NCBI GenBank assembly: GCA_003169975.1
Contig: PNAA01000056.1
Span: forward strand, 3,123-67,122
Direction of reading: 5' to 3'
Length of the DNA: 64,000 nt
From: Spartobacteria bacterium
GTDB lineage: Bacteria; Verrucomicrobiota; Verrucomicrobiia; Chthoniobacterales; UBA10450
Shown here: in pieces, positions 5,677 through 23,465 of the stretch
Position numbering within the stretch: position 1 is the stretch's first letter
Layout: every line of letters begins with the position of its first letter
Translations under genes and position numbers: made by a program
The notes under the pieces: model-generated
What the model saw: the letters and a program-made list of their open reading frames with translations, nothing else
What the model was told of the DNA's origin: nothing
Databases searched by the model: none

Positions 5677-6840
5677 ATGCTGGAAAGACCGCCGCGGCAG
5701 CATCGAACTCCTCCAGCACGGCCATTGCCTCTCGCTCGAGTCACCGACCCCGGCTACAACTGTCTCGTGGAGCGAGAAGTGGAATTGCTGATCGAAGACA
5801 TCGCCTTCGGCGGAAAGGGCGTCGGGCGAGCGGAAGGCAAAGCCGTCTTTGTTCCCTTCACGATCGAGGGCGAGCGGGTCGCGGCGCGCGTCGTGCGAGA
5901 GAAAAAATCGTTCGCGGAAGCGGATCTGGTGACGGTGCTGGAATCCTCGCCGCAGCGCACCACGCCGCAGTGCCCCTATTTCGAGCGATGCGGCGGCTGC
6001 AGTTACCAGCACATGAGTTACGAGCATCAACTGCACTGGAAAGCGCGCCAGGTCCGACAGGCGCTTCAGCGCATCGGAAAATTTCGCGAGCCGCCGGTGC
6101 GCCCGATCGTCCCCTCGCCGCACGACTATGAATATCGCAACCGGATCACGGTGCATGTCGAGAACGGCATCGTCGGATTTTTCCGGCGCGACGGCCATCG
6201 GTTGATCGACATCGAACGCTGCCCGATCGCCGCGCCAGCGGTGAATGACGAACTCACCGCGCTCCGGGCGCGGCGCCCACGCGACGGCCATTACACCTTG
6301 CGCGCGCAGAGCGGCCCGCGCGTCTTCTCCCAGACGAATGACGCGGTCGCCACCCACCTCGCTGACGCGATCGCGGCCCTGGTTCCGCCTAACGAATCGC
6401 TCCTGATCGACGCTTACTGCGGCGCCGGATTTTTCGCGAAACGGCTGAAAGCGAAATTTTCGCGGATCGTCGGGATTGACTGGGACATCCACGCGATCGC
6501 CGCCGCGGAGGCGAACGCGACCGCGGCGGAAACCTATTGCGCCGGGGAGATCGCGACGCATCTCGGAGAGCGACTCGCGGGCGCCAATCTCAAGAGCACG
6601 ACCGTGATCGTTGATCCGCCGGCGACCGGCTTGGGTGCCGATGTGCGCGAGATCCTCCGTCGCTATCCGGCTGCGACGCTTCTTTACGTCTCGTGCAATC
6701 CGCCGACGCTGGCGCGCGACCTGGCCGATCTGGGGGCGGCTTTCACCCTCCAAAGCGTGACGCCCTTCGACATGTTTCCGCAGACCGCCGAGATCGAAGT
6801 TCTCGCCCATCTCACGGGCAGCGAGATCGCAGCTCGTTAA
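5677..6840 (+). CDS. RumA/RlmD-type RNA (uracil-5)-methyltransferase with TRAM domain and Fe-S cluster
   Basis: TRAM-like N-terminus (LIEDIAFGGKGVGR), Cys cluster CPYFERCGGCSYQHM, SAM-MTase motifs (DAYCGAGFF, VDPPATG, YVSCNP). The exact start is uncertain. Confidence 0.85.
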   Translation: MLERPPRQHRTPPARPLPLARVTDPGYNCLVEREVELLIEDIAFGGKGVGRAEGKAVFVPFTIEGERVAARVVREKKSFAEADLVTVLESSPQRTTPQCPYFERCGGCSYQHMSYEHQLHWKARQVRQALQRIGKFREPPVRPIVPSPHDYEYRNRITVHVENGIVGFFRRDGHRLIDIERCPIAAPAVNDELTALRARRPRDGHYTLRAQSGPRVFSQTNDAVATHLADAIAALVPPNESLLIDAYCGAGFFAKRLKAKFSRIVGIDWDIHAIAAAEANATAAETYCAGEIATHLGERLAGANLKSTTVIVDPPATGLGADVREILRRYPAATLLYVSCNPPTLARDLADLGAAFTLQSVTPFDMFPQTAEIEVLAHLTGSEIAAR

Positions 6841-6930
6841 CGAATTCTTAACGTCTGCGGCCATTCCTTTGATTGGCGCGGATGCGAAGTCGAGTTCCCA
6901 AGCGGGAGCGACAAGGGTAAGGTTCGACGG

Positions 6931-8253
6931 ATGCACATCTTGATCGTTGACGACGAAAAGAACATTCGCCGCGCCTTGACAATGGCGCTGGAATCGATGG
7001 AGCATGCCGTGACTTGTGCTTCGAATAGCGCTACGGCGATGGCGGAATTGCGCACCGCTTCGTTCGATGTCGTCCTCCTGGATCTAAAGTTAAGCCAGGA
7101 AAACGGACTCGATGTGCTGGAGGAAATCCTGCGTATCTCGCCGCAGACGGCGGTCGTGATGGTGACGGCCTATGCGTCGATCGAGACGGCGGTGGAGGCG
7201 ATGCGACGCGGCGCATTTGATTACCTGCCGAAACCCTGCACACCGGATCAGGTGCGACAGGTAATCGGGAGGATCGAGAAGACCCGGAAGCTGGAACGAC
7301 GGGTCGTCGAGTTGGAGTCGCGTCTGGGAGCGGACGGACCGGAGAGCGATCTCACGTCACAATCGCCCGCCATGCAGAAGGTGCTCGAGATCGCGTTCAA
7401 AGTGGCAGAGAGCGAAGCGATCGTTCTCCTTCTCGGCGAGAGCGGCACGGGCAAGAGCGTCCTGGCGCGAGCGATGCATCAACGAAGTCCGCGCCGCGGC
7501 GGAGCCTTTGTGACGGTGAGTTGTCCAAGCCTTTCGCGAGAGCTGTTGCAAAGCGATTTGTTCGGCCACGTCAAGGGCGCGTTCACCGGCGCGTATGCCG
7601 ACACCCTGGGCAAGGTCGCGGCGGCGGATGGCGGCACGTTGTTTCTTGACGAAATCGGTGAGTTGCCGCTGGAGATTCAGGCAAAACTGCTGCGGCTCTT
7701 GCAGGAGCGAGAATATGAACGGGTCGGCGAATCGAAGCCGCGCCGAGCCAACGTGCGGGTGATCTCGGCGACGAACCGCGATCTCGCACAGGCAGTCGCG
7801 GATGGCAAGTTTCGCGAAGATCTTTTCTACCGGCTGAATGTCATCTCGCTCCGCCTGCCGCCGCTGCGCGATCGCATGGACGATCTGGAGAAGATTGCGC
7901 GTAGCCATCTGACCTTTCTCGCCGGACACGCGGGCAAGAATGTGCGCGGTTTCTCGCCCGACGCGCTGACCGCGATGCGGCAATACGCGTGGCCGGGCAA
8001 TCTCCGCGAGCTTCATAACGTGATCGAGCGGGCGGTGATTTTGTGCAGCAGCGAAATGATTGAGGCGGACGATCTGTCCGACACGATTCAAACCAGCTCC
8101 GAGTTGCGCCTCGGCGGAAAACTCACCGTGCACGAAATCGAAACGGAGCACATTCGGCGGGTGGTAGCGAGCACGCGCAACCTGGATGAAGCAGCGACGA
8201 TTCTCGGCATTGATCCGGCAACGCTCTACCGCAAACGCAAGAAGCTCTTCTAA
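6931..8253 (+). CDS. sigma-54-dependent response regulator (REC + AAA+ + Fis-type HTH; NtrC family)
   Basis: MHILIVDDE...DVVLLDLKL receiver, GESGTGKS Walker A, GAFTGA loop, and a C-terminal HTH ([19 protein letters not shown]). Confidence 0.9.
7841..8253 (+). repeat. direct repeat copy A (3' end of the sigma-54 activator gene); partner at 10503-10912
   Basis: Aligned by eye to 10503-10912: about 96% identity, with a perfectly identical core at 7930-8075 = 10592-10737. Confidence 0.9.
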
Positions 8254-8261
8254 GCCGCAGA

Positions 8262-8480
8262 TTACAGAGTTCGCCACCACCGATGCGTGGCGACTGCGGC
8301 CCAAACCACCTCAATAATCCCGAATGGCCAGGCGCCTTGCAAAAATCCGTACGTCGAACCCAAAACGCATGCGAGAGCGAAGCCTAGAATAAACCAACGG
8401 CTTCGCTCTTCTAACGCGTAGCAGATCATCATGCTCGTGACGGCCGCGAGTCCAAATAGTGTTAGCGCGTCAACTTTCAT
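8262..8480 (-). CDS. small two-TM membrane protein (hypothetical)
   Basis: 72-aa ORF with two hydrophobic helices (LFGLAAVTSMMICYAL, WFILGFALACVLGSTYGFL) and a WPFGIIEVVW tail. Confidence 0.5.
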   Translation of the reverse strand: MKVDALTLFGLAAVTSMMICYALEERSRWFILGFALACVLGSTYGFLQGAWPFGIIEVVWAAVATHRWWRTL

Positions 8481-8603
8481 CGGCTACGGGATGATTAGAA
8501 GATTGCTCCTCTCTTCCAAAATTCCAAACTCTGTCACGACCGGCGCGATGATCAGCTTGATTTATGACTCAGGATCTCTGACCGTCTCGCAAGAGTTTCC
8601 AGC

Positions 8604-10295
8604 ATGAGTGTCGACGCTTTTCAGGCTGGCATTTTTCTGCTGGTCGTCGCTGCGCTGGTCAAGCCGGTCGGCGCGTATCTGGAACGGGTTTTCCAGCGGC
8701 AAAAAACATGGCTCGACCCGCTGCTTGTGCCAGTGGAGCGCCTCATTCACCGGATTCTGGGCATCGACGCGCGAGGTGAAATGGATTGGAAACGTTACTC
8801 GCTGGCCTTTGTGATTTTCAGTGTTGTCAATGTTGTCGCGCTCTATTTCCTGCTGCGCTGGCAGGCATGGTTGCCTTGGTATTTTCCGAAGGTAATGACC
8901 ACGCCAATGGCTCCGGATCTGGCGGCGAACACGGCTGTCAGTTTCGTGACCACAACCACGTGGCAGGCCTACGCCGGCGAGAACACGTTGAGCTACTTCA
9001 GTCAGATATTGCTCGCCGGGCAGAACTTTGTCGCCGGCGCGGCAGGACTTGCCGTGGGCATTGCTTTTATTCGCGGTTACGTGCACGAGAAGACGGAGAA
9101 CCTGGGTAACTTCTGGGTTGATCTCATTCGCGCGCTCTTATGGGTGCTCGTGCCGCTCTCGGTCGTTGGGAGCATCTTCCTGGTCTGGCAAGGTGTGCCG
9201 ATGAATTTCCTGCCATACGCTGTCGCGCACACCATCGAGGGCGGGACTCAGACCATCGCTCGCGGGCCTGTCGCCGCGCTGGAGTTTATCAAGAATCTCG
9301 GCACCAACGGCGGCGGCTTTTTCAATGTCAATGGCGCGCATCCTTTCGAAAATCCGACGCCGCTGACGAACTTTGTCGAACTGCTCGCCATTGTGGTGCT
9401 GCCCGCCGCTTTTACGCACACCTTCGGCCGAATGGTGGGCAAACCGCGTGACGGCTGGGTGATCTTTTGGACGATGACCGCGCTCTTTATCGCGGGCTTA
9501 GTTGTGTGCGAATGGGCGGAAGGAAGCATGCACCCTGCGCTGGCACACGAGATCGCCGGCGGCAACATGGAAGGCAAAGAGGTGCGCTTTGGCGTCGGCG
9601 GTTCGGCCCTCGCGGCGGTCGTGACTTCCAATGGCGCGACTGGCTCCTACAACTCAATGCACGACAGCTTCGAGCCGCTCGGGGTCGCCGTGCCGCTGGT
9701 TAATATGTTGCTCGGCGAGATTGTCTACGGTGGCTTGGGCACGGGGCTTTACAGCATGATCTTCGTTGCCTTGCTGGCGCTGTTCGTCGGCGGATTAATG
9801 GTCGGCCGCAGCCCCGAACATCTTGGCCGGCGGCTCGGACCGCCCGAGATGAAAATCATCGCACTTTATACGCTTCTCGGACCGGTCACTGTGCTCGTGA
9901 TGACGGCTGTTGCTGTCGTGACGGACGCCGGTCGCGTGGGACTGACGACCAACGTCGGGTCGCATGGATTCACCGAAATTCTTTTCGCCTACGCGAGCGC
10001 TTTCGCAAACAATGGCCAGAGCATGGCGGGCCTCAGCGCCAACAATATTTTTTACAACACAACGACGATCATCGCCATGCTGGCCGGCCGCTTTGGTCTG
10101 GCGGTGTTGGCTCTGGCCCTGGCGGGCCGCTTCGCCGCTGCGCGCCGACGACCTGCCGGCGCTGGCACGATGCGTTCGGACGGAGTGCTATTCGGCATGC
10201 TGCTTGCGGGAACAGCGATCTTTGTGGGTGCGCTGAATTTCCTGCCTGCGCTCGCGCTCGGACCGATCCTCGAGCATTTTTCAATGCGTCCATAA
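8604..10295 (+). CDS. kdpA: potassium-transporting ATPase subunit KdpA, orphan copy (no kdpB/kdpC follows)
   Basis: 563 aa, full-length KdpA-like (NTAVSFVTTTTWQAYAGE, LGTNGGGFFNVNGAHPFENPTP, TSNGATGSYNSMHDSF). By eye it is substantially diverged from the second kdpA at 15924. Confidence 0.9.
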   Translation: MSVDAFQAGIFLLVVAALVKPVGAYLERVFQRQKTWLDPLLVPVERLIHRILGIDARGEMDWKRYSLAFVIFSVVNVVALYFLLRWQAWLPWYFPKVMTTPMAPDLAANTAVSFVTTTTWQAYAGENTLSYFSQILLAGQNFVAGAAGLAVGIAFIRGYVHEKTENLGNFWVDLIRALLWVLVPLSVVGSIFLVWQGVPMNFLPYAVAHTIEGGTQTIARGPVAALEFIKNLGTNGGGFFNVNGAHPFENPTPLTNFVELLAIVVLPAAFTHTFGRMVGKPRDGWVIFWTMTALFIAGLVVCEWAEGSMHPALAHEIAGGNMEGKEVRFGVGGSALAAVVTSNGATGSYNSMHDSFEPLGVAVPLVNMLLGEIVYGGLGTGLYSMIFVALLALFVGGLMVGRSPEHLGRRLGPPEMKIIALYTLLGPVTVLVMTAVAVVTDAGRVGLTTNVGSHGFTEILFAYASAFANNGQSMAGLSANNIFYNTTTIIAMLAGRFGLAVLALALAGRFAAARRRPAGAGTMRSDGVLFGMLLAGTAIFVGALNFLPALALGPILEHFSMRP

Positions 10296-10391
10296 CCTGG
10301 TTCCCGCGTTGAAACGCACTATCGCAATGGTCAGAGGAGTAGGTATCGCCGTGTCATTATCCCGGGATAGTGACTGGAACAGCCGGAAGCG

Positions 10392-10912
10392 AAAAAACTC
10401 CCTTGGACCGCGGCGCCGGCGGACACACGACAGGCACGATCAACCCCGGCGTGATCTGGGCGGGCCACCTCTTTCAGTTTGTAGTGGAGGCGGTCGTTCC
10501 GATCATCTCGCTCCGCTTGCCGCCGCTGCGCGAGCGCAGGGACGATCTGGAGAAGATTGCGCTCAGCCATCTGACCTTTCTCGCAGGACATGCGGGCAAG
10601 AATGTGCGCGGTTTCTCGCCCGACGCGCTGACCGCGATGCGGCAATACGCGTGGCCGGGCAATCTCCGCGAGCTTCATAACGTGATCGAGCGGGCGGTGA
10701 TTTTGTGCAGCAGCGAAATGATTGAGGCGGACGATCTATCCGACACGATTCAAACCAGCTCCGAGTTGCGCCTCGGTGGAAAACTCACCGTGCACGAAAT
10801 CGAGCCGGAGCACATTCGGCGGGTGATAGCGAGCACGCACACCCTGGATGAAGCAGCGACGATTCTCGGCATTGACCCAGCAACGCTCTACCGCAAACGC
10901 AAGAAACTCTAG
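10392..10912 (+). pseudogene. mosaic pseudogene: internal fragment of an OM-channel paralog (like 43932-44894) fused to the 5'-truncated 3' end of the sigma-54 activator
   Basis: The track ORF 10370-10912 reads ...TPLDRGAGGHTTGTINPGVIWAGHLFQFVVEAVVPI | [19 protein letters not shown].... The first part matches PLDRGAAGQTTGTINPGVIWAGHYCQFGVEAIVPI of the 43932-44894 protein. The second part matches the C-terminus of the 6931-8253 protein. The junction lies at TCA (10503-10505). Confidence 0.75.
10503..10912 (+). repeat. direct repeat copy B (5'-truncated duplicate of the sigma-54 activator 3' end)
   Basis: See copy A. Homology ends at the stop codon (aagaagctcttctaa versus aagaaactctag). Confidence 0.9.
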
Positions 10913-10968
10913 GCCGGGGTGGCCCGCGTTTTCGCGTCGGGCAAAATGCAATCCGCAGGATGTTCTAA

Positions 10969-10985
10969 TCGTGCATGATGCACGA
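10969..10985. promoter_or_regulatory. 17-bp perfect palindrome TCGTGCAT-G-ATGCACGA, candidate activator (UAS) site
   Basis: 8-bp arms around a single central base, centred about 85 bp upstream of the TGGCAC element at 11062. That is the typical distance for an enhancer-binding-protein site. Confidence 0.35.
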
Positions 10986-11061
10986 CGCACATTGGGCCAA
11001 TGAAGTGACAGAAAACTGTAAATAGCTCTTTTGCAGAATGTAACGCGTTTAGAGAAAGGCA

Positions 11062-11077
11062 TGGCACGCCATCCGCT
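11062..11077 (+). promoter_or_regulatory. candidate sigma-54 (-24/-12) promoter TGGCAC-GCCAT-CCGCT
   Basis: Perfect -24 TGGCAC and correct GG-N10-GC spacing. The -12 element is CCGCT rather than TTGCW. It lies about 165 nt upstream of the kinase start at 11243 and downstream of a sigma-54 activator gene. Confidence 0.4.
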
Positions 11078-11242
11078 AGGGAGGCGAGCATGAAGATGCT
11101 TCGCCAGTTGCCGCAACGGGCCTTCGGTGCCGACGCGAGTCGGAGGCGCGCCGGTTATGGAACCTCAAGTCTGCCGAAAGGCACGGTCGCCATCTAATCT
11201 GGTGGCTCGCCACGCAAAGGCGCATCGGGCACGCTGGGTAGC

Positions 11243-13051
11243 ATGAAACGACGCATCTTTTTCGGTCTCGCACCGCTCTTCATTCTGCTCATCGCAATGG
11301 GTCTTTACGCCGTCACGCTTTTCACGAATCTGGGCAACCGCGTCGATGTCATCCTCCGCGAAAACTTCCGCAGCGTTCTGGCCGGCCAGCAAATGAAAGA
11401 AACCGCTGAACGTATGGATTCGGCCCTCTTCTTCTCGCTCGTGGGCGAGGAAGAGCGAGGGCACAAATTGTATGCGCAAAACCTGCCCGCATTTCGCGAT
11501 AGCGTGCGCATCGAACTCGGCAACATCACTCTGCCGGGTGAAGCAGAACTCGCCGCGAAGGTGAAACAGTTGCACGAGAAATACGCCGCTCGGGCGGAGG
11601 CCTTCTGGGCGACGCCCGACATCGGGCAGCGACGGAAGATGTATTTCGGCGAGATGCTGCCGGCCTTCACGGAAATCAAAGACACCGCGCAGGAAATCAT
11701 CCGCATCAATCAGGACAACATGGTGCAAGCGGACCGAGAGGCCCGCCAACTCGCGGCGGAATCGACGCGCTACATGATCTTCGCGATCGTCGCCGGGATC
11801 GGGGGCGCCATCTTTTTTGCCGTGCGGCTTCAGCGTTCGATCTTGCGTCCGATCCGTCGCCTCACGACCGTCTCAAAGGAACTTGGCGAGGGTAAGCTTG
11901 ACCAGGTCGTACCGGTCACGTCCCAGGACGAACTCGGCCAACTCGCCGACACCTTTAACAAGATGGCGACGAAGTTGCGCGCTTATCGCCAGGTGATGGG
12001 CGACCAGATTCTGCAGGCGCGACAGATGACCGAGATCACTTTTTCGGCGTTCCCCGATCCAATCATCGCGCTTACTTCCGATGGGCGGATCGATTTTACC
12101 AATCCGGCGGCGACCAAGTTTCTCTATCATTGCGGGCAGGCGGATTCCCTCCCCGCCAGCGTGCAGGCGGAGGTCGATCGTGTCTTCAAAGGCGCGCCCG
12201 ATTTTCTGCCGACGAGTTTTGAGAGAGTGATCGTTTTTCGCGTGGATGGGCACGAGGTCTTCATGCTCCCGCGCGTGATCGGGATGCGCGATGAATCGGG
12301 CAACATCTTCGGCGCCGCCGTGATACTCCAGGATGTGACCCGTCTGCGCCTGCTCGATGAGGTGAAGACGAATCTCGTCTCGACAGTCAGTCACGAGTTG
12401 AAGACGCCGCTGACCAGTGTGCGCATGGGCTTGCACCTTCTTCTCGAAGAACGCATCGGCCCTCTCAACGACAAGCAAACGGAATTGCTCCTCGCGGCTC
12501 GCGAAGATTCCGAGCGCCTGCTGCGCATGATCAATGACTTGCTCGATCTGGCGAAGCTCGAGTCAGGCAAGGCCGTGCTGCCGAGCGAGGTAATCGAGCC
12601 ACGGGAGTTAGTCGAAAGCGCGGGCGAAGATTTACGCGGGCTCGTCGAGTCACGCGGCTCGCGGCTCGTGACGAAAACCGAGCCGGGATTGGCGAGTGTC
12701 TTCGTCGATGCGCAACAGATTTCGCACGTTTTTTCGAATTTTGTCTCCAATGCGGTCAAGCACACGAAAGCCGGCGAAGAGATTGTGCTCGGGGCAAGGA
12801 AGCATAACGACACTATCCGCTTTTCCGTGATCGATCACGGCTCCGGGATTGTCCCAAAATATCGCGCGCGCATCTTCGACCGCTTCTTCCGCGTGCCTGG
12901 CTCGGAAGTGACAGGCGCGGGTCTCGGCCTGGCAATTGCCAGGGAAATAGTCCTGGCGCAGGGCGGGACCATCGGCGTCAACAGCAACCCCGGGCAAGGC
13001 AGCGAATTCTATTTCGATCTGCCGCCCGCTCGCAACGGCGCAACCTCATGA
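11243..13051 (+). CDS. sensor histidine kinase (2 TM, periplasmic sensor, HAMP, PAS, HisKA, HATPase_c)
   Basis: HAMP (DELGQLADTFNKMA), PAS (FPDPIIALTSDGRIDFTNPAA), H-box SHELKTPLTSV, G-boxes (DHGSGI, GAGLGLAI). Confidence 0.85.
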   Translation: MKRRIFFGLAPLFILLIAMGLYAVTLFTNLGNRVDVILRENFRSVLAGQQMKETAERMDSALFFSLVGEEERGHKLYAQNLPAFRDSVRIELGNITLPGEAELAAKVKQLHEKYAARAEAFWATPDIGQRRKMYFGEMLPAFTEIKDTAQEIIRINQDNMVQADREARQLAAESTRYMIFAIVAGIGGAIFFAVRLQRSILRPIRRLTTVSKELGEGKLDQVVPVTSQDELGQLADTFNKMATKLRAYRQVMGDQILQARQMTEITFSAFPDPIIALTSDGRIDFTNPAATKFLYHCGQADSLPASVQAEVDRVFKGAPDFLPTSFERVIVFRVDGHEVFMLPRVIGMRDESGNIFGAAVILQDVTRLRLLDEVKTNLVSTVSHELKTPLTSVRMGLHLLLEERIGPLNDKQTELLLAAREDSERLLRMINDLLDLAKLESGKAVLPSEVIEPRELVESAGEDLRGLVESRGSRLVTKTEPGLASVFVDAQQISHVFSNFVSNAVKHTKAGEEIVLGARKHNDTIRFSVIDHGSGIVPKYRARIFDRFFRVPGSEVTGAGLGLAIAREIVLAQGGTIGVNSNPGQGSEFYFDLPPARNGATS

Positions 13052-13740
13052 AAGCAAAAATACTAATCGTAGACGACGAACCGAACGTCCGTCTCAGCTA
13101 TCGCATGGCCCTGGAAGCCGAAGGATACGTCATCAAGGAAGCGCATTGCGGCGCGAGGGCGCTCGATGAGCTGGCCACCGGCGGGTTCGATCTCGCGATC
13201 CTCGATATGCGCATGCCGGAGATGGATGGACTCGACCTTCTCGCGGAAATGCGCAACCGCGGTTTCACCACGCCATCCGTCATCATCACGGCCTTTGGCG
13301 ATGTGCCACACGCCGTCCGCGCGATGAAGCTCGGTGCGATCGATTTTCTCAAGAAACCGATCACGCCGGAGGCGCTACGCAACATCGTGACGGATGTGGT
13401 TTCACGTCACCAAACCGGGGCCACTCCGGCAAGCCCGCCGCGCGATGACTTCCACGATCACATCGTGACCGCACAGCGGCTGCTCAACTTGCAAGATTTC
13501 CCGCGAGCGAAGAAGCACCTCATCCGCGCGCTCGAGCTAAACGACAAATCGCCCGAAGCCTTCAATCTCACGGGCGTGCTCTTCGAGATGCAGGAGGATT
13601 ACGAGCGCGCGAAAAAATACTACGGGCAGGCGATCAAGCTGAACAAGCATTACGAGCCGGCGCAGCAGAACATGCGGCGCATTTTCGAGTTGTTCCATTT
13701 CGGTGCCAGCAAAGAGCCAGTGGCCTTGGGGGATGCCTAG
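13048..13740 (+). CDS. response regulator, REC domain fused to a TPR-like C-terminal domain (copy 1)
   Basis: ILIVDDEPNVR...DLAILDMRMPEMDG receiver. The C-terminus is helical-repeat (AFNLTGVLFEMQEDYERAKKYYGQAIKLN). The ATGA overlap with the kinase stop suggests translational coupling. Confidence 0.85.
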   Translation: MKAKILIVDDEPNVRLSYRMALEAEGYVIKEAHCGARALDELATGGFDLAILDMRMPEMDGLDLLAEMRNRGFTTPSVIITAFGDVPHAVRAMKLGAIDFLKKPITPEALRNIVTDVVSRHQTGATPASPPRDDFHDHIVTAQRLLNLQDFPRAKKHLIRALELNDKSPEAFNLTGVLFEMQEDYERAKKYYGQAIKLNKHYEPAQQNMRRIFELFHFGASKEPVALGDA

Positions 13741-13741
13741 A

Positions 13742-14518
13742 ATGAACAAGCGCCTCCTGATCGTTGATGACGAGCCGAACGTCCGGCTCAGCTATCGCGC
13801 CGCTTTGGAATTAGAAAGTGATTACGCCATTGACGAGGCGAACTCCGCGTTCACCGCCCTGGAGAAGTTGGTCGAGGGCCGCTTCGACCTCGCCATCCTC
13901 GACATGAGGATGCCGGAAATGGATGGGCTCGAGTTGCTCGCCAGGATGCGCGAGCGCGGCCTGTCCACGCCGACAGTCATAATCACCGCTTATGCTGATC
14001 TGCCGCATGCCGTCAAAGCCATAAAGCTGGGTGCGATCGATTTTCTGCAAAAACCACTCACGCCCGATCAACTTCGACAGGTTGTCGCTGAAATCCTTGT
14101 TCGGCACGAGGACAACCAAGGCTTAAACGAGGTCGAAGCGAAGGATTACGCCTACCATTTGCGAGCCGCGAAACGAGCCATCAATCAGCGCGACTTTGAA
14201 GCGGCGAAGCGAAGTTTAAGAAGAGCGCTCCACCTCGACGACCGTTCTGCGGAAGGTTTCAACCTGGCGGGTCTGGTAGCGGAGTTGTCTGGCGACTTCA
14301 AAATCGCAACGCGCTACTACGAACAAGCCTTGCGGATCGACAAGGACTTCGCCCCCGCGCAGCAAAACGCGAAAAGGATCGACGAGCTCGCTCGGCGCGG
14401 AACGAGCAAGGAACCTCTCGCGCTCGGTAACGACCAACTTTCAGATTCTCCAACCACCACATTTCCTAATCAACCACCACACTATGCTCAGAATCCTCAC
14501 TCCATTACTCGCAGTTAG
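13742..14518 (+). CDS. response regulator, REC + TPR-like domain (copy 2, tandem paralog)
   Basis: MNKRLLIVDDEPNVRLSYR...DLAILDMRMPEMDG. By eye it is clearly a close paralog of copy 1 over the REC domain. I prefer the ATG at 13742 over the track start at 13703. Confidence 0.85.
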   Translation: MNKRLLIVDDEPNVRLSYRAALELESDYAIDEANSAFTALEKLVEGRFDLAILDMRMPEMDGLELLARMRERGLSTPTVIITAYADLPHAVKAIKLGAIDFLQKPLTPDQLRQVVAEILVRHEDNQGLNEVEAKDYAYHLRAAKRAINQRDFEAAKRSLRRALHLDDRSAEGFNLAGLVAELSGDFKIATRYYEQALRIDKDFAPAQQNAKRIDELARRGTSKEPLALGNDQLSDSPTTTFPNQPPHYAQNPHSITRS

Positions 14519-15719
14519 TCTCGCTCTACTCGGAAGCATTGTCGCATTCTTGCCCGCACGCGCTGGCCAGGAGGAAACAAAGGCGACGGCTTCTCCCACG
14601 CCCGAGCCACGCTTCAAGATCTCTGGTTGGATCGAAAGCGGCATCACCTTCAATCCAGATAGCCCAGCTGATAATCAAAACTTCGGGCGTTTTTTTGACG
14701 ATCGCGCGAACGAACCGTTGCTAAACCAAGCCGTGCTCAATCTCGAGCGCGCACTGGCACCGCAGCCCGGACAATTCGATTGGGGCTTCAAATTGCAATT
14801 CATGTACGGGAGCGATGCGCGCTTCATTCATTCCCTTGGTCTATTCAGCGATACGGCGGGCACCTCAATCGTCCAGCCGGACTTGCCCGAAGCCTATCTC
14901 AACCTTCACTTTCCCATTATCAGCGAGGGCGGCCTCGACTTGAAGCTTGGCAAATTCGTCACCCTGGAGGGAGTGGAAACGATCGATCCGCGCACAAATT
15001 TCTTCTACTCGCACACCTACATTTTTAATTTTGGCATTCCATTTAACCACACCGGCGCACTGGCGACCCTGCACGCGACCAAGTGGCTCGATCTTTACGC
15101 CGGCGTTACGCGGGGTGTGAATACGAGCATCGACGATAACAACGATAGTGCCTCTTTTCACGGCGGCGTCGGACTCAATCTTCTCGATGGCAAACTGACG
15201 GTTCTCGCGACCACGTCCATTGGTCCTGAAACACCGAATAACAATCACGATCAGCGTTATCTCAATGACATCGCAGTCACGGCAAAGATAACTGATAAAT
15301 TCACTTCGCTGACCGATCTCAATTATGCTCTGGACGAGGTCGCTGGCGCTCAAGCTTATGGCATCGCGCAATATTTTACCTATGCGTTCAACAGTTGGTT
15401 GACTGCTGGAATCCGCGGCGAACTCTTTCGGGATGCCGACGGCTTTTACGTCGTCTCGTTTGCCAACACCCATGACCCGATGCGCGCCTTGGAAGGTCTG
15501 TCGACCATTGATCCGCGCACCGTCGGTGGCGGGAAGACAACCTATGGGGCGATCACAGCCGGCGTAAACATCAAGCCGCCCATGCCAAAGCCCCTGGCGG
15601 GCATGGCGATCCGGCCCGAGGTCCGATACGACCGCTCTTTGAACAACACACGACCTTTCAACGACTCAAGCGACCGCGATCAATTTACTGCCGGGATCGA
15701 CTTCATTCTAACCTTCTGA
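14484..15719 (+). CDS. outer-membrane beta-barrel porin (OmpL/bbp2-like) inside the kdp gene string
   Basis: Signal peptide (LLAVSLALLGSIVAFLPARA), alternating beta-strand pattern, and a C-terminal ...GIDFILTF ending in Phe. It overlaps the upstream regulator by 35 nt. Confidence 0.7.
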   Translation: MLRILTPLLAVSLALLGSIVAFLPARAGQEETKATASPTPEPRFKISGWIESGITFNPDSPADNQNFGRFFDDRANEPLLNQAVLNLERALAPQPGQFDWGFKLQFMYGSDARFIHSLGLFSDTAGTSIVQPDLPEAYLNLHFPIISEGGLDLKLGKFVTLEGVETIDPRTNFFYSHTYIFNFGIPFNHTGALATLHATKWLDLYAGVTRGVNTSIDDNNDSASFHGGVGLNLLDGKLTVLATTSIGPETPNNNHDQRYLNDIAVTAKITDKFTSLTDLNYALDEVAGAQAYGIAQYFTYAFNSWLTAGIRGELFRDADGFYVVSFANTHDPMRALEGLSTIDPRTVGGGKTTYGAITAGVNIKPPMPKPLAGMAIRPEVRYDRSLNNTRPFNDSSDRDQFTAGIDFILTF

Positions 15720-15730
15720 CCTAACGACTT

Positions 15731-15814
15731 ATGATTGACCTGTTTTTTATCGCACTCACCATCGGCTTCTTCGCTTTGATGCTGGTCTTCATCTGGGCCT
15801 GCGAAAAGGTCTAA
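15731..15814 (+). CDS. 27-aa hydrophobic peptide (MIDLFFIALTIGFFALMLVFIWACEKV), possible KdpF-like paralog
   Basis: Not in the ORF track (too short). Single TM helix, same length and same ..EK(V/F) ending as the adjacent KdpF. It fills the porin-kdpF gap exactly. Confidence 0.4.
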   Translation: MIDLFFIALTIGFFALMLVFIWACEKV

Positions 15815-15827
15815 CCACTACAATCCA

Positions 15828-15911
15828 ATGGAAAACACTATCGTCGGAATCATTGCTTTTGCATTGATCGTCTATCTCATCTTCACGATCGTCCGCCCGG
15901 AGAAATTCTAA
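15828..15911 (+). CDS. kdpF: K+-transporting ATPase subunit F
   Basis: MENTIVGIIAFALIVYLIFTIVRPEKF: a single TM helix and the ...Y(L/A)...RPEKF ending characteristic of KdpF, 12 nt upstream of kdpA. Confidence 0.7.
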   Translation: MENTIVGIIAFALIVYLIFTIVRPEKF

Positions 15912-15923
15912 CTACCACTACTC

Positions 15924-17747
15924 ATGAATACTTCAGGTTGGATTCAACTCATTCTCTTCGCTGCCGCCTTGTTGGTGACGGCCAAACCACTCGGCCTTTA
16001 TCTTTGCAAGGTGCTCGATGCGAACGGCAAGACGTTTCTCGATCCGGTCATCAAGCCGATCGAAAGGCTGACTTACAAGCTAACCGGCGTCGATCCGAAG
16101 CAGGAACATGACTGGAAACGCTACGCCACCGCGATGCTGCTTTTCAGCCTGGTCTCGATGCTCTTTACTTACGCGATCCTGCGTTTGCAGGCGGTGCTCC
16201 CGCTTAATCCGCAGAAGCTTGTCGCGGTCGGCGAACATCTCGCCTTCAACACGGCAGCGAGCTTCACCACGAACACCAACTGGCAGAGCTACGGCGGCGA
16301 AAGCACCATGTCGTACCTCTCGCAGATGGTCGCGTTGACCATCCACAACTTCGTCTCGGCGGCTGTCGGTATAAGCATTGCCGCCGCCCTCGTTCGCGGC
16401 ATCGCGCGACACACGTCTCAGACCATCGGCAATTTCTGGGTCGATCTTACCCGTGTCACCTACTATCTGTTGGTGCCAATCTGCGTCGTGTTTGCGGTTG
16501 TTCTTGTGTCGCAAGGGATGATCCAAAACTTTAAGCCCTATGACTCTGCCAGCTTAAGCGATCCGTTCACTACGCAGGTGCCAAAGGTCGATGACAAGGG
16601 TGCAGCGGTCAATGGTCCCGACGGCAAGCCGGTCATGGTCGACCAAAAAATCGATGCGCAAACCATCGTGCAAGGTCCGATGGCTTCGCAGATCGCAATC
16701 AAGATGCTGGGCACCAACGGCGGCGGTTACACCAACGCCAACGCCGCGCAACCTTTCGAGAACCCGACTCCGCTCTCCAATTTCCTGCAAATGTTCGCGA
16801 TCTTCGCGATCCCGAGCGCGCTGACTTATTTCCTCGGCCGCTCGGTTAGGAACCAGGGCCACGGCTGGGCCGTATGGGCAGCGATGTTTGTCCTCTTCTT
16901 TGCCGGCGTGATGGTGGCGGCTCATTATGAAGCGGCTGGCAATCCAAACTTCACGGCTCTTGGTGTCGACCCAGCCGATGGCAACATGGAAGGCAAGGAG
17001 GTCCGCTTCGGCATCTTCAATTCCGCGCTCTTCGCCACCATTACGACCGATGCTTCCTGCGGCGCGGTTAACTCGATGCATGATTCCTTCACGCCGATGG
17101 GAGGTTTGGTGCCGTTGCTCAATATACAACTTGGCGAGGTCGTCTTCGGCGGCGTGGGCGCGGGGCTTTATGGAATGCTGATATATGTCATCATCGCGGT
17201 CTTTATCGCGGGCCTGATGGTAGGTCGCACGCCTGAATACCTCGGGAAAAAGATCGAACCGAAGGACGTCAAGATGGCTTCATTTGTCATCCTGATTCTC
17301 GCTTTCTCGATTCTCGGTTTCTCTGCCTGGGCCAGTGTCAGCAAGATGGGCGCGCCGGACGCAACCGGCGCACTGACGGACGGAACAAACAACAGCGGAC
17401 CGCATGGCTTCAGCGAAATTCTTTACGCTTACAGCTCATGCACCGGCAACAATGGCAGCGCCTTCGCGGGTCTCACGGCGAACGCGCCCTGGTATGACAC
17501 GACGCTTGGCTTCGCGACGCTCTTCGGACGTTTTGCGATGATCGTGCCGATCCTCGCGCTCGCCGGCTCACTCGCGCGCAAGAAATTGATCGCGGAAAGC
17601 GCCGGCACGTTCCCGGTCTCCGGCCCGCTCTTCACCAGTCTGCTCGTCGGCACGGTGCTCCTGATCGGGGCGCTCACCTTCGTCCCTGCGCTCGTCCTCG
17701 GCCCAGTCGTCGAACACTTCCTGATGCACGCCGGCAAGTTGTTTTAA
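15924..17747 (+). CDS. kdpA: potassium-transporting ATPase subunit KdpA
   Basis: 607 aa, KdpA signatures (NTAASFTTNTNWQSYGGE, LGTNGGGYTNANAAQPFENPTP), followed directly by kdpB and kdpC. Confidence 0.95.
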   Translation: MNTSGWIQLILFAAALLVTAKPLGLYLCKVLDANGKTFLDPVIKPIERLTYKLTGVDPKQEHDWKRYATAMLLFSLVSMLFTYAILRLQAVLPLNPQKLVAVGEHLAFNTAASFTTNTNWQSYGGESTMSYLSQMVALTIHNFVSAAVGISIAAALVRGIARHTSQTIGNFWVDLTRVTYYLLVPICVVFAVVLVSQGMIQNFKPYDSASLSDPFTTQVPKVDDKGAAVNGPDGKPVMVDQKIDAQTIVQGPMASQIAIKMLGTNGGGYTNANAAQPFENPTPLSNFLQMFAIFAIPSALTYFLGRSVRNQGHGWAVWAAMFVLFFAGVMVAAHYEAAGNPNFTALGVDPADGNMEGKEVRFGIFNSALFATITTDASCGAVNSMHDSFTPMGGLVPLLNIQLGEVVFGGVGAGLYGMLIYVIIAVFIAGLMVGRTPEYLGKKIEPKDVKMASFVILILAFSILGFSAWASVSKMGAPDATGALTDGTNNSGPHGFSEILYAYSSCTGNNGSAFAGLTANAPWYDTTLGFATLFGRFAMIVPILALAGSLARKKLIAESAGTFPVSGPLFTSLLVGTVLLIGALTFVPALVLGPVVEHFLMHAGKLF

Positions 17748-17786
17748 CTCTCAATCCTCAACTAACAATCTCTCAACTTTTCTAAT

Positions 17787-19811
17787 ATGGCTGCTAAAAC
17801 TCATTCCATTTTCGATCCGGCGATCATCATCCCGGCGATCGGTGCATCGTTCCAGAAGCTCAACCCTGCCCACATGCTCGGGAATCCGGTCATGTTCGTC
17901 ACGGAAGTCGGCGCTCTGATTACGACCGCGCTTCTCTTCAGCGGCGGACAGGGCGCGTCCTTTGGTTTCCTGCTCCAGATTACCCTCTGGCTCTGGTTCA
18001 CGGTGATCTTCGCGAACTTCGCGGAAGCGATGGCGGAAGGTCGCGGCAAAGCCCAAGCCGAGACATTGCGCAAATCGAGAACCGAAACGAAGGCCAATCG
18101 TTTCCGGGGCGATGGCGCGCTCGAGGAAGTTCCCTCAAACAAGCTCAGGAAAGGCGATGTCGTCATCGTGAAAGCCGGCGAATTCATCCCCGGCGACGGC
18201 GAGATTATCGAAGGCGCCGCGACCGTGGACGAGTCAGCCATCACCGGCGAATCAGCCCCCGTTGTGCGCGAAGCTGGCGGCGACCGCAGCGCTGTCACCG
18301 GCGGCACCCGCGTGCTTTCAGACGTGATCAAAGTCCGCATTACCGCGAATCCCGGCGAGACCTTCCTCGATCGCATGATCGGGCTTGTCGAAGGCGCGAA
18401 ACGTCAGAAGACCCCCAATGAAATCGCGCTCACCATCCTGCTCTCCGCGCTCACGATCATCTTCCTCATCGTGCTCATTTCGATGAAAGCGTTCGGCATT
18501 TACAACGGGGTCGATTTCTCGATCACGGTGCTCGTCGCATTGCTCGTCTGCCTCATTCCCACGACGATCGGCGGATTGCTCAGCGCCATCGGAATCGCGG
18601 GGATCGATCGTCTCGTGCAGAAAAATGTGCTCGCCATGAGTGGGCGCGCGGTTGAAGCCGCCGGCGACGTGGATGTGTTGTTGCTGGACAAGACCGGCAC
18701 GATCACGCTTGGCAATCGGCAGGCTGCGGAATTCCTGCCCGCCCCTGGTGTGACGAAAGAGGCCATGGCGGAAGCTGCGCAACTTGCTTCCCTGGCCGAC
18801 GAAACTCCGGAAGGCCGGAGTATTGTGGTTTTGGCCAAGGAAAAATACGGATTGCGCGGACGCGAGCTCAACGAGCTGCCGCACGCCACCTTCGTCCCGT
18901 TCACTGCCCAAACCCGAATGAGCGGCGTGGACATTAACGGGACCAAGTATCGCAAAGGCGCGGCCGACCAGGTGAAAGCTTTCGTCGGCGGCAACCTGCC
19001 CGGAGCTGTTCAGTCCGATGTCGATAGGATCGCTGGACTCGGTGGAACACCGCTGGTCGTGGCCTCAAACGAGAAAGTGCTCGGCACGATCTACCTCAAG
19101 GACATCGTGAAGGGCGGACTGGCGGATCGTTTCGAGCGCTTCCGCGCCATGGGCATCCGCACCATCATGATTACCGGCGACAATCCGCGCACCGCTGCGG
19201 CCATCGCGAAAGAAGCAGGCGTCGACGACTTCCTCGCCGAAGCAACACCGGAGCAGAAGCTCGCGCTGATTCGCAAAGAGCAGGAGGGCGGTCACCTCGT
19301 CGCCATGACCGGTGACGGCACGAACGACGCGCCCGCGCTGGCCCAGGCCGATGTTGGCGTAGCGATGAACACCGGCACGCAAGCCGCCAAGGAAGCGGGC
19401 AACATGGTCGATCTCGACTCGAACCCGACCAAGCTCATCGAGGTCGTCGAGATCGGGAAACAACTCCTCATCACTCGCGGTGCGCTGACCACGTTCAGTA
19501 TCGCCAACGATGTCGCGAAGTATTTCGCCATCATCCCAGCGATGTTGCTCGTCAGCTTCCCGTCAATCGCGCCGCTCAATGTGATGAAGCTCGCGTCGCC
19601 CCAGAGCGCCATTCTGAGCGCGGTGATCTTCAATGCGATCATCATCATCCTGCTCATCCCGCTCGCCCTGCGCGGTGTGAAATTCCGCCCGCTTGGCGCG
19701 GCCAAAATTCTGCAACGCAATCTTCTCATCTACGGTGTCGGCGGCGTCATCATTCCATTCATTGGCATCAAAGCGATCGACATGATGGTCGCCGCACTTC
19801 ACCTCGCCTAG
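17787..19811 (+). CDS. kdpB: potassium-transporting ATPase subunit KdpB (P-type ATPase)
   Basis: DKTGTIT phosphorylation motif, [22 protein letters not shown]. 674 aa. Confidence 0.95.
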
Positions 19812-19832
19812 TTCCGCAAACCGATTTATCCC

Positions 19833-20426
19833 ATGAATACTATTATTAAAGAAACCACTACCGCGGTGCTCGCGACGCTTCTCTTCGCCCTCGTTCTGTG
19901 CGGCATCTACCCAGTCATCATCTGGGGAGCCGGCCAGTTGCTCTTCCCGCACCAGGCCAATGGCAGCCTGATCGAAGGCAGCGATCGTAAGACTGTCGGT
20001 TCCGAACTGCTCGGCCAGAACTTTACCAGCGCGAAATACTTTCATCCGCGTCCTTCTTCGGCTGGCACTGGTTATGATGCGGCTAACTCCAGCGGCTCCA
20101 ACCTTGGGCCGACTTCGCAGAAACTGATCGACGCGGTGAAACAACGCGTCGCCGATTACCGCGCTGAGAACGGCCTGGCCGCTGATGCACTTGTCCCCGG
20201 CGATGCTGTCACCGCGAGTGGCAGCGGTCTCGATCCGCACATCAGCCCGAAGAACGCGCTCCTGCAAGCCTCCCGAGTTGCGAGAGAGCGCGGCCTCGGC
20301 GTGGACGTTGTGAAAACCGAAATCGACAAAGCCACGACCGCGGCACAGTTCGGCATTCTTGGGGAAGCCGGCGTGAACGTACTTAAACTTAATCTCGCGC
20401 TCGACGCGATGTCTCCCAAAAAATAA
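19833..20426 (+). CDS. kdpC: potassium-transporting ATPase subunit KdpC
   Basis: 197 aa, an N-terminal TM helix, then LFPHQANGSLI and SGSGLDPHISP motifs typical of KdpC. Confidence 0.95.
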   Translation: MNTIIKETTTAVLATLLFALVLCGIYPVIIWGAGQLLFPHQANGSLIEGSDRKTVGSELLGQNFTSAKYFHPRPSSAGTGYDAANSSGSNLGPTSQKLIDAVKQRVADYRAENGLAADALVPGDAVTASGSGLDPHISPKNALLQASRVARERGLGVDVVKTEIDKATTAAQFGILGEAGVNVLKLNLALDAMSPKK

Positions 20427-20435
20427 TCTCTTCAC

Positions 20436-21566
20436 ATGCCCGAGGCCGACTCCGCCCTACGTCCGAGCGCGGATGATTTCCTTGCGATCATCCGCCAGCA
20501 GCAGGTCGGAAAGTTGAAGATCTATCTCGGTCCCTGCCCCGGCGTCGGCAAAACCTATTCGATGTTGAACGAGGGGCGCCGCTTGAAACAGCGCGGCGTC
20601 GACGTCGTCATCGGCTACGTCGAGCCGCACGATCGCCCCGAAACCACCGCGCAAATCGGCGACCTCGAGATCGTGCCGCCGCGGCTCACGACTTATCACG
20701 GGATCACGCTCAACGAGATGGATGTGGACGCCGTTATCAAGCGCAAGCCGACCGTCGCGCTAGTCGATGAACTCGCGCACACGAACGCGCCCGAAAGCAA
20801 AAACCGGAAGCGCTACGAAGACGTGGAAGATTTGCTTCGCGCGGGCATCAACGTCATCAGCACGGTCAACATTCAGCACCTCGAATCGCTCTATAATTTC
20901 GTCGAAGAGTCAACCGGGGTGCGCGTGAAAGAACGAGTGCCCGACGAAGTCCTAACCAAAGCCGACCAGATCGTGAACATCGACTTGCCCGCTGAAGATT
21001 TGCAGGAGCGACTGCAGTCCGGAAAAATTTATCCAAAAGAACGGATCGTAGCCGCGCTCGCGAATTTCTTCACCCAGAAAAACCTCACGCGCCTGCGCGA
21101 GATGACGCTGACCGAAACGGCGAACTTTCTCGACCGCAAACAACGCGACACCGCAGAGAGCGAGCAGAATGTCAGCGCGCTCGGTCAGGTGATGGTCGCG
21201 ATCAGCAGTCAAGGTCCAGATCCCGGACGACTGCTCCGCAAGACCGCGCGCCTGGCTTCACAACTCAACGCGCAATGGTATGCGGTCTATGTGCGCACGC
21301 CTGAGGAATCGGTCGTAAAGATCGACGCCGCCGCTCAGCGCCGTGTCACCGACACGCTCGAAACCGCCCAGAAAATGGGCGGTCTGGTCTTTTCGATGAA
21401 GGGCGAAAATGTCGCGCAGGCTCTGATCTCGTTCGCTCGCGAATACGGTATCACGCACATCGTCGTCGGCCGCCCCGGCGGCAACAAACTAAAGCGGCTT
21501 TTCAGAAAGACGCTGCACGAAAAACTATTGCAGGCGCTGCCAGATGTCGATCTCGTCGTGGTCTGA
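20436..21566 (+). CDS. kdpD: KdpD N-terminal sensor domain + USP domain protein (no TM, HisKA or ATPase domains)
   Basis: GKLKIYLGPCPGVGKTYSML Walker-like motif, VDELAHTNAP and NVISTVNIQHLES (KdpD N-terminal domain), then a USP-like half. The ORF ends at 376 aa. Confidence 0.85.
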   Translation: MPEADSALRPSADDFLAIIRQQQVGKLKIYLGPCPGVGKTYSMLNEGRRLKQRGVDVVIGYVEPHDRPETTAQIGDLEIVPPRLTTYHGITLNEMDVDAVIKRKPTVALVDELAHTNAPESKNRKRYEDVEDLLRAGINVISTVNIQHLESLYNFVEESTGVRVKERVPDEVLTKADQIVNIDLPAEDLQERLQSGKIYPKERIVAALANFFTQKNLTRLREMTLTETANFLDRKQRDTAESEQNVSALGQVMVAISSQGPDPGRLLRKTARLASQLNAQWYAVYVRTPEESVVKIDAAAQRRVTDTLETAQKMGGLVFSMKGENVAQALISFAREYGITHIVVGRPGGNKLKRLFRKTLHEKLLQALPDVDLVVV

Positions 21567-22039
21567 GCGGCGTCGGTGTGTCCTTGCCTTCTTCTGTCCA
21601 CGCGGTTTTCGCGGAAAAGAAGACGACCGCCAGCTCTATCCAGGACCCAAAAGACCCCGCTCATCCGATAAGCGTAACGCTCGATTAATGTGAACTCAAT
21701 TTGTTACGATCGCTAGAGCTCCACGACGCCTGCTCCGCGCACCCGGCCCACTTGGTTAGGCCACGCCCTCCACCGGCCAAAATGCTGCCTAAGGCGTAGA
21801 TAGGACGATCCCGAGACGACCAAGCCGTCACTGATCAATACCGAATAGGGCATCGGTTACCGTCTCACCCTGCCAGAAGAGCCATTGCGCAACCACGCGG
21901 CGTTGGGTAGTGTCATAATTTCAATTTAGATGCCCAAGTCTGGTTGTTCCACTCGCGGACGTCTTATCTGCGAGCTTGTCCACCAACTTGTTTCCATCCA
22001 ACTCAAGCAAGCCTAGACGCTTCGGGCTTTTCTTGCCGT

Positions 22040-22221
22040 CGTCGAGCGTCCAAAATTCGCCAACGCCTGAGCGCCCGGTCCAAGGCCGCTGCCGCCTTGC
22101 ACTACGGCTACTACAATTTGTCAAAACGACCGCTGCGGTGCGCTGCACGCCCGCAAGGGCCGCTGGTGTGACGCAAACGTTCTGGACAGTCCGGGATCTC
22201 GTAGAGATGATTGAAGCGTGA
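22040..22221 (+). pseudogene. frameshifted C-terminal remnant of an IS1/IS1595-type transposase
   Basis: Two adjacent frames read ...ASKIRQRLSARSKAAAALHYGYYNLSK and FVKTTAAVRCTPARAAGVTQTFWTVRDLVEMIEA*. From memory this matches the ...AFSKK.EN....ALH..YYNF.R.H.TL..TPAMAAGVTDH.W...EL tail of these transposases. Confidence 0.45.
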
Positions 22222-22505: not shown

Positions 22506-22509
22506 GAGC

Positions 22510-22860: not shown

Positions 22861-22861
22861 C

Positions 22862-23252: not shown

Positions 23253-23319
23253 GACACTACCCGCCATTGTGCTCGCTTGACTTCCCGTTTCGCCAATCAG
23301 AGCATGACTCTGGTTCTTT

Positions 23320-23460: not shown

Positions 23461-23465
23461 TTAAA

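Follow-up and report, generated by a model that had tools for sequence, protein, structure and literature searches.

A conserved sigma-54 promoter, a dedicated kinase and a short KdpD point to an alternative to KdpD/KdpE at a Chthoniobacterales kdp locus

Introduction

The potassium pump KdpFABC is classically controlled by KdpD, a sensor kinase, and KdpE, an OmpR-type response regulator, and the locus described here raises the question of what controls the pump when neither protein is encoded beside it. The locus lies in a 64,000-nt stretch of DNA (hereafter the window; contig PNAA01000056.1, positions 3,123 to 67,122, assembly GCA_003169975.1) belonging to a soil bacterium of the order Chthoniobacterales (Verrucomicrobiota), represented by a genome bin of 4.47 Mb in 59 contigs with a completeness of 97%. 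A first-pass annotation of the window had proposed a non-canonical control of Kdp, with no KdpE and no full KdpD, and this proposal was upheld by a conserved sigma-54 promoter, a conserved enhancer site and a conserved gene string. The locus is probably a member of a widespread alternative Kdp control system, in which a sigma-54 activator and its own kinase replace KdpD/KdpE.

Parts of such a system have been described. In Desulfovibrio vulgaris, the kdp operon is a target of the sigma-54 response regulator that it encodes, DVU3334, and two proteins, DVU3336 (K+ sensor and Usp) and DVU3335 (sensory-box kinase), were described there as a split kinase (Rajeev 2011, PMC3333781). DVU3334 was also listed as a GAFTGA enhancer-binding protein for potassium uptake (Kazakov 2015, PMC4641369). 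Given this precedent, the earlier statement that no such combination involving a sigma-54 activator had been described had to be withdrawn. The N-terminal domain of KdpD is an atypical serine kinase that phosphorylates KdpB at S162, and the stand-alone domain suffices for this reaction in vitro (Silberberg 2024, PMC11018627). In the same work, short KdpD/Usp proteins, kept at the end of kdp operons, are assigned KdpB phosphorylation only, stimulated by cyclic di-AMP (c-di-AMP); a separate two-component system is named only for Deinococcus radiodurans, Anabaena and Alicyclobacillus, and the control of kdp transcription is left open in many species with a short KdpD (PMC11018627).

Results

Organization of the kdp locus

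Domains were called with Pfam and NCBIfam/TIGR profiles and riboswitches with Rfam, and related loci were mapped by tblastn. Every gene of the first-pass list was recovered with Pfam at the same coordinates, all on the plus strand; that list had omitted a second kdpA and a copy of the activator 3' end, both located between the activator and the kinase and entered separately in that annotation. The features of the locus are as follows.

6931-8253, plus strand: NtrC-type activator with a receiver (REC) domain, a sigma-54 AAA+ domain with GAFTGA, and HTH_8 (Pfam, translation)
8604-10295, plus strand: kdpA2, a second KdpA paralog of 563 aa (PF03814, TIGR00680)
10503-10912, plus strand: activator 3' remnant (AAA lid and HTH_8), copy 2 of a direct repeat
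10969-10985, plus strand: candidate enhancer (upstream activating sequence) palindrome TCGTGCAtgaTGCACGA (conservation across loci)
11062-11077, plus strand: sigma-54 -24/-12 promoter TGGCACGCCATCCGCT (GG-N10-GC spacing, conservation)
11243-13051, plus strand: membrane HAMP-PAS-HisKA-HATPase histidine kinase (Pfam)
13048-13740, plus strand: first receiver-tetratricopeptide repeat protein, REC-TPR 1, 230 aa (Pfam)
13742-14518, plus strand: REC-TPR 2 (Pfam; the longest open reading frame begins at 13703)
14484-15719, plus strand: BBP2 (OmpL-like) outer-membrane porin with a signal peptide (PF07642, 265 bits)
15731-15814, plus strand: 27-aa hydrophobic peptide ahead of kdpF (conserved across phyla in the fetched loci)
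15828-15911, plus strand: kdpF, 27 aa (TIGR02115)
15924-17747, plus strand: kdpA (Pfam)
17787-19811, plus strand: kdpB, TGES motif kept (Pfam)
19833-20426, plus strand: kdpC (Pfam)
20436-21566, plus strand: short KdpD, KdpD domain and Usp, 376 aa (Pfam)
23314-23473, plus strand: c-di-AMP riboswitch, neighbouring context outside the operon (Rfam RF00379)

From the kinase to the short kdpD, adjacent genes overlap by at most 35 nt or are separated by at most 39 nt. The tightness of this string, already pointed out in the first-pass annotation, is matched by its retention as a unit in related loci.

Absence of full-length KdpD and KdpE and distribution of the two designs

A single KdpD-domain match was found in the 97%-complete genome, that of the short KdpD, and no OmpR-type regulator was detected at the locus with Pfam. 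As a query for KdpE, the 230-aa protein of a relative of the same genus (L107) was used, which possesses a canonical kdpABC together with an 874-aa KdpD. No KdpE ortholog was recovered in the genome: the query matched four OmpR-type proteins with identities between 34% and 37%, i.e. at the level of paralogs. Both results agree with the earlier claim that full KdpD and KdpE are missing. A kdpDE pair elsewhere in the genome, named at that stage as the observation that would speak against non-canonical control, was looked for and was not found in the assembled 97%.

Among 251 genomes of the order Chthoniobacterales, 57 possessed a short KdpD and 49 a full-length KdpD, and none possessed both. An ortholog of the locus kinase (identity of at least 48%) was present in 54 of the 57 short-KdpD genomes, the three exceptions being fragmented bins, and in none of the 49 long-KdpD genomes. 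According to these counts, the short and full-length designs are alternatives, and the kinase goes with the short KdpD.

A search of public genomes with an alignment of the kinase retrieved 80 loci, which were mapped by tblastn. About 30 Chthoniobacterales loci, including that of the cultured Chthoniobacter flavus Ellin428, share the order activator, kinase, REC-TPR, an optional porin, kdpABC and kdpD-N (the stand-alone KdpD N-terminal gene), so that the gene order for which a check in public genomes had been suggested is indeed kept. Three relatives retrieved through the short KdpD showed this order with one REC-TPR gene.

Other lineages possessed variants of this arrangement. Loci of Syntrophaceae, Desulfomonile, other deltaproteobacterial metagenome-assembled genomes (MAGs) and Seleniivibrio encoded the activator, the kinase, kdpABC and kdpD-N, with no REC-TPR. 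In a planctomycete (L065), the activator and kinase were followed by a KdpD N-terminal domain fused to a phosphotransferase system (PTS) EIIA domain and then by REC-TPR. One Bacteroidota locus (L085) had the activator, kdpABC, a BBP2 porin, kdpD-N and then a 4HB-HAMP-PAS kinase; another (L086) was arranged likewise, except that no activator gene was detected ahead of its kdpA. Literature searches for sigma-54 control of kdp in Bacteroidetes found nothing relevant. In Acidobacteria and Armatimonadota, kdpABC was followed by kdpD-N, by the kinase and by receivers whose C-terminal domain is of another type, with no activator nearby, and in some of these loci the kinase and receiver stood ahead of kdpD-N.

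Two side observations were made on these loci. The fusion in L065 (7925-9634, Planctomycetota MAG) joins the KdpD N-terminal domain to PF00359; in E. coli, EIIA-Ntr interacts with KdpD, an interaction that the fusion echoes. In Acidobacteria, Armatimonadota and Abditibacteriaceae, the kdp-linked kinase was followed by one or two receivers (L069:11889-13357, L070:11778-12572, L084:11947-13757) with a C-terminal domain of about 130 aa that had no Pfam match and was not TPR, and no DNA-binding regulator was visible there.

Activator, sigma-54 promoter and candidate enhancer site

The activator carries the receiver aspartate D51, a Walker A motif (GESGTGKS) and GAFTGA in its translation, and rpoN was found in the genome. 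Orthologs of the activator stand upstream of the kinase in most related loci. The kinase gene of the window is preceded by the sigma-54 promoter listed above, and nearly every locus with an activator gene had a matching -24/-12 element ahead of its kinase gene, across Verrucomicrobiota, Deltaproteobacteria, Deferribacterota and Planctomycetota. The intergenic stretches of the string contained no further sigma-54-like element, and none with at least 9 of 12 matches was found before kdpA2, the porin or kdpF.

The palindrome, of the form TCGTGCA-N3-TGCACGA, begins 93 nt upstream of the promoter, and a perfect palindrome starts 91-94 nt before the -24 box in most Chthoniobacterales loci. Its half-sites (CGTGCA/TGCACG) were found in about 10 relatives; another clade possessed CTCGCA-N3-TGCGAG, and C. 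flavus CATGCA-N3-TGCATG. Because its position is fixed while both half-sites change together, the palindrome at 10969-10985 looks like an enhancer site for a dedicated activator. Promoter and palindrome were both kept in about 30 related loci, and together they support a tie between the activator and the string from the kinase to kdpD-N.

Kinase

The kinase is predicted to possess two transmembrane (TM) segments, a periplasmic domain, HAMP, PAS, HisKA and HATPase, with an invariant phospho-acceptor, H384. Among the kinases of the genome it is the closest to the KdpD transmitter (103 bits, compared to 85 for the next). The possibility that it is a split-off half of KdpD was considered and rejected, as it has two TM segments, HAMP and PAS rather than four TM segments and GAF, and its identity to the KdpD transmitter is only 35% over the catalytic core.

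Short KdpD, the pump and c-di-AMP

The short KdpD ends at residue 376, after the universal stress protein (USP) domain, and possesses no TM, GAF or histidine kinase part. Its motifs are intact: a Walker A-like GPCPGVGKT with an extra residue, the Walker B DE within LVDELAHT, and R192. The N-terminal domain aligned over its full length with the solved Pseudomonas KdpD N-terminal domain (2r8r; E 1.6e-61). Against NF038185, named "KdpD-like non-kinase potassium sensor", the protein scored 349.6 bits, under the cut-off of 550, and against NF007793 it scored 344 bits over residues 5-376. The label "kinase-less" given to it in the first-pass annotation is misleading, since the KdpD N-terminal domain is itself a serine kinase (PMC11018627) and its motifs are intact here.

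On the pump side, KdpB keeps the loop with the target serine (ITGESAPV). The kdpF product scored 25.6 bits against TIGR02115, just under the cut-off of 26.85, with the RPEKF end present.

The genome also carries two diadenylate cyclase (DAC) genes, and an RF00379 riboswitch (54 bits, above the gathering score of 38) lies 1.7 kb downstream of kdpD-N, ahead of a permease gene. The presence of the two cyclase genes and of the riboswitch before this nearby gene makes a control of the pump brake by c-di-AMP plausible. The permease (623 aa, 23466-25337) has a C-terminal USP domain, and in several relatives synteny between its gene and the kdp locus is retained.

REC-TPR proteins

Both REC-TPR proteins combine a receiver with an intact pocket and TPR, with no DNA-binding domain. 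The pocket residues D9, D10, D53, T81 and K103 were invariant or nearly so in 31 homologs. In an AlphaFold2 model (pLDDT 84.5), a linker joined the receiver to five helices, equivalent to about 2.5 TPRs, and these were followed by a disordered tail whose sequence is strongly conserved (FG(S/T)SKEPxxLG). The start of REC-TPR 1 overlaps the kinase stop codon (ATGA), and the kinase and REC-TPR genes were always adjacent. REC-TPR 2 is a tandem paralog of REC-TPR 1 (55% aa identity), whose relatives begin at a MNKR/MSKR methionine; two copies were also present in L047 and L051, and one in most relatives. In the C. flavus Ellin428 draft (L034), the REC-TPR reading frame stops at 166 aa, leaving the receiver only, and kdpB is matched in three pieces; the draft is an old one, and these breaks reflect either frameshifts introduced by sequencing or genuine decay.

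Within the genome, the C-terminal (TPR) part had no paralog, and the best BLAST partner of the receiver was the receiver of the kdp activator (41% identity). A sequence search of PDB returned no REC-TPR entry, and a Foldseek comparison of the model with PDB gave matches through the receiver domain only. A profile search of a large protein set returned numerous close homologs from metagenomes, with generic names only. No paper on the REC-TPR component was found, so the earlier view apparently stands as regards a combination with TPR-output regulators. As the output of these proteins is protein binding, not DNA binding, they may act as phosphate sinks or as phospho-dependent adaptors. Moreover, the deltaproteobacterial and Bacteroidota versions work without REC-TPR, which makes it an accessory.

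Porin and small peptides

BBP2 porins were found inside the kdp loci of three lineages, Chthoniobacterales, Bacteroidota (Sphingobacteriales, Chitinophaga; L085:7753-8859, L086:7773-8849) and Ignavibacteriales (L083:7059-8465), and this distribution suggests that a K+ pathway across the outer membrane is regulated together with the pump. In the literature, searches on porins of kdp operons found nothing relevant.

The peptide ahead of kdpF reads MIDLFFIALTIGFFALMLVFIWACEKV. Among the fetched kdp loci (L024-L090), peptides of the pattern M-x-D ... [AG]C[EDG][KR][VIL] were present in most of those from Verrucomicrobiota and Deltaproteobacteria, and also in many of those from Armatimonadota, Acidobacteriota and Bacteroidota. 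The peptide may be an unrecognised small Kdp component.

The kdpA2 insert

An insert of 2.25 kb (8249-10502), not present in the closest relative (L026; 91% nt identity), includes kdpA2 and a 72-aa membrane open reading frame on the minus strand (8262-8480). The kdpA2 product is full length (PF03814, 687 bits; TIGR00680, 625 bits) and shares 44% identity with the KdpA of the operon. The insert is bracketed by direct repeats of about 407 nt, with 7841-8247 repeated at 10503-10909. Over their first part (7841-8140 compared to 10503-10802) the copies are 97% identical, and L026 has a single copy. Of the two ancestral junctions, the upstream one is kept by copy 1 and the downstream one, which leads into the promoter region, by copy 2, hence the activator gene remains intact; its product ends in KKLF, and those of L026 and copy 2 in KKL.

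The core of the insert (8267-10372) is 88% identical to L035, whose flanks are only 68-70% identical and which has the kdpA2 cassette at the same place. At its right end, positions 10395-10502 match a piece of a distant gene, the reverse complement of window positions 44042-44149, with an identity of 86%. Orthologs of kdpA2 (75-91% identity; for example L121:2221-3915 and L122:2201-3895), which form a distinct KdpA clade, were found in 8 of the 251 genomes of the order. Seven of these carriers were short-KdpD genomes; in the eighth (G240), the KdpD-domain frames are all broken. Wherever its surroundings could be seen, kdpA2 adjoined the activator or the kinase, sometimes divergently. From these features, the insert looks like a real, mobile accessory cassette. 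Tandem kdpA-kdpA genes were also observed in L083 (Ignavibacteriales) and L073 (Acidobacteriota).

Discussion

Comparison with known Kdp systems

The D. vulgaris kdp operon (DVU3339.1-DVU3334) is the closest described counterpart. Like the locus presented here, it has a sigma-54 NtrC-type regulator with GAFTGA, a separate PAS ("sensory box") histidine kinase and a stand-alone KdpD N-terminal and Usp protein encoded beside kdpC, and it has no OmpR-type KdpE. The gene order differs, being kdpFABC, kdpD-N, kinase and activator in D. vulgaris, whereas here the kinase comes first and the activator is a separate upstream gene. In addition, one or two REC-TPR genes, a BBP2 porin, a second small peptide and sometimes a second kdpA accompany the system here and were not reported for D. 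vulgaris. The link to DVU3334/DVU3335 is indirect, through loci of Syntrophaceae/Syntrophobacterales, with identities of 52% for the activator and 39-40% for the kinase. The core mechanism is thus of a known type, with experimental precedent in D. vulgaris.

The short KdpD shares its two-domain architecture and its position at the end of the kdp operon with that of Deinococcus geothermalis. It also shares with the proteins of the Silberberg study the Walker A-like, Walker B and Arg motifs, the TGES motif of KdpB and the diadenylate cyclases; unlike in those short-KdpD systems, its partner here is a sigma-54 system. With the E. coli system, the locus has in common a two-component system next to kdpFABC and a homologous KdpD N-terminal and USP region. 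It differs by lacking the 4-TM/GAF/DHp/CA part of KdpD and the OmpR-type KdpE, and its kdp promoter is of sigma-54 type, compared to the canonical sigma-70 promoter of E. coli.

Proposed control circuit

We infer the following circuit, in which every phosphotransfer step, the K+ signal, the c-di-AMP control, the single transcript and the role of the REC-TPR proteins are predictions. Under K+ limitation, the membrane HAMP-PAS kinase would phosphorylate the NtrC-type activator, which would bind the palindrome at 10969-10985 and open the sigma-54 promoter at 11062-11077. One long transcript would then cover the kinase, the two REC-TPR genes, the porin, the two peptides, kdpABC and the short kdpD; with the kinase gene inside this proposed transcript, the circuit would include positive feedback. 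The short KdpD most likely phosphorylates the conserved serine of the KdpB TGES loop, which would halt pumping once K+ is plentiful, and c-di-AMP is probably the signal read by its USP domain. The REC-TPR proteins would be extra receivers of the same kinase, serving as phosphate sinks or phospho-dependent adaptors, and this is the weakest step of the scheme.

A scan of positions 6500-23500 is neutral on the operon structure: it gave slightly more terminators (28) than shuffled sequence (19.9 ± 4.9) and fewer sigma-70 promoters (2, compared to 5.6), both counts being near the shuffled values. Several observations weigh against this circuit. A few related loci (L039-L043, L058, L122) have no activator gene next to the kinase, and the linkage between kinase and REC-TPR is tighter than that of the activator, so that the primary partner could be REC-TPR. 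When the 36 receivers encoded in the genome were placed in a tree, no sister relation of REC-TPR to the activator receiver was resolved, and such a link is favoured by the BLAST ranking only. The kinase, which has no KdpD 4-TM/GAF module, is not the split-off C-terminal half of KdpD. Finally, compared by eye, the USP domain of the short KdpD (AISSQ...WYAVY) only partly resembles what we take to be the c-di-AMP motif of S. aureus (SxS-X20-FTAxY).

Alternative explanations

The short KdpD might instead act mainly as a co-sensor for transcription, docking on the kinase, tuning its kinase/phosphatase balance and so reconstituting a split KdpD. Rajeev et al. read DVU3336 and DVU3335 as one kinase in two open reading frames (PMC3333781), and the near-perfect co-occurrence of short KdpD and kinase, the adjacency of their genes in Acidobacteria, Armatimonadota and Bacteroidota, and the position of the locus kinase as the nearest to the KdpD transmitter in the genome all fit this reading. 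However, the Walker A/B and TGES motifs needed for a serine-kinase role are intact, a lone KdpD N-terminal domain phosphorylates KdpB in vitro (PMC11018627), and the kinase, without the KdpD TM/GAF module, is not a literal half of KdpD. Co-sensing and braking are, besides, compatible with each other. We regard a mainly co-sensing short KdpD as a possibility to be kept in mind, although the odds are against it. A less likely explanation takes the REC-TPR proteins as the cognate output of the kinase, acting post-translationally on the pump, the porin or the short KdpD, with the activator fed by another kinase or active at a basal level. The translational coupling and constant adjacency of kinase and REC-TPR, set against an activator that is not nearby in several loci, speak for it, as do the fully conserved receiver pocket and the occurrence of REC-TPR after the kinase or KdpD-N in L065 (planctomycete) and in L062 and L077 (Syntrophobacterales). 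Yet the deltaproteobacterial and Bacteroidota versions do without REC-TPR, a sigma-54 promoter needs an activator, the palindrome varies from lineage to lineage in the way that a dedicated activator would require, and DVU3334 binds its kdp promoter (PMC3333781).

The activator 3' duplicate, kdpA2 and possibly the two REC-TPR copies might also be artefacts of metagenome assembly. The bin is a draft in 59 contigs, L026 lacks the insert and has a single REC-TPR gene, and the right end of the insert is a mosaic with a piece of a distant gene. This explanation is nevertheless very improbable: the repeats differ by 3% and each has one ancestral junction, as a real single-crossover or illegitimate insertion would give, and assemblers collapse repeats and seldom create them. 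Moreover, the kdpA2 cassette stands at the same place in an independent MAG (L035), its orthologs flank the system in other families, and two further MAGs (L047, L051) likewise carry REC-TPR genes in tandem. The preferred reading thus remains that of a sigma-54 activator with its own kinase. A more speculative extension of it, to which we give little credence, is that REC-TPR links the state of the kinase to the short KdpD or the pump in trans, that kdpA2 swaps into KdpFABC, and that the peptide and the porin are parts of the pump system in many phyla. If true, a coupling that is internal to the single polypeptide of full-length KdpD would be re-established in trans by REC-TPR.

Significance

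Beyond the core mechanism, several elements are apparently new: the REC-TPR branch, an operon that begins with the kinase and stands behind a conserved promoter and enhancer, the kdpA2 cassette, the porin and the pre-KdpF peptide as recurrent companions, and the either/or distribution with respect to KdpDE within one order. In an abundant soil order, about half of the genomes with Kdp depart from the KdpD/KdpE scheme and, judging by the related loci, the scheme also fails in lineages of at least five other phyla. On the question of how kdp transcription is controlled in short-KdpD species, raised by the 2024 work, the data suggest that the answer is, in general, a sigma-54 two-component system, for which a defined promoter, an enhancer site and a partner kinase are now available. 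The REC-TPR branch would add a clear example of a circuit in which one kinase serves several receivers and the output does not act on DNA.

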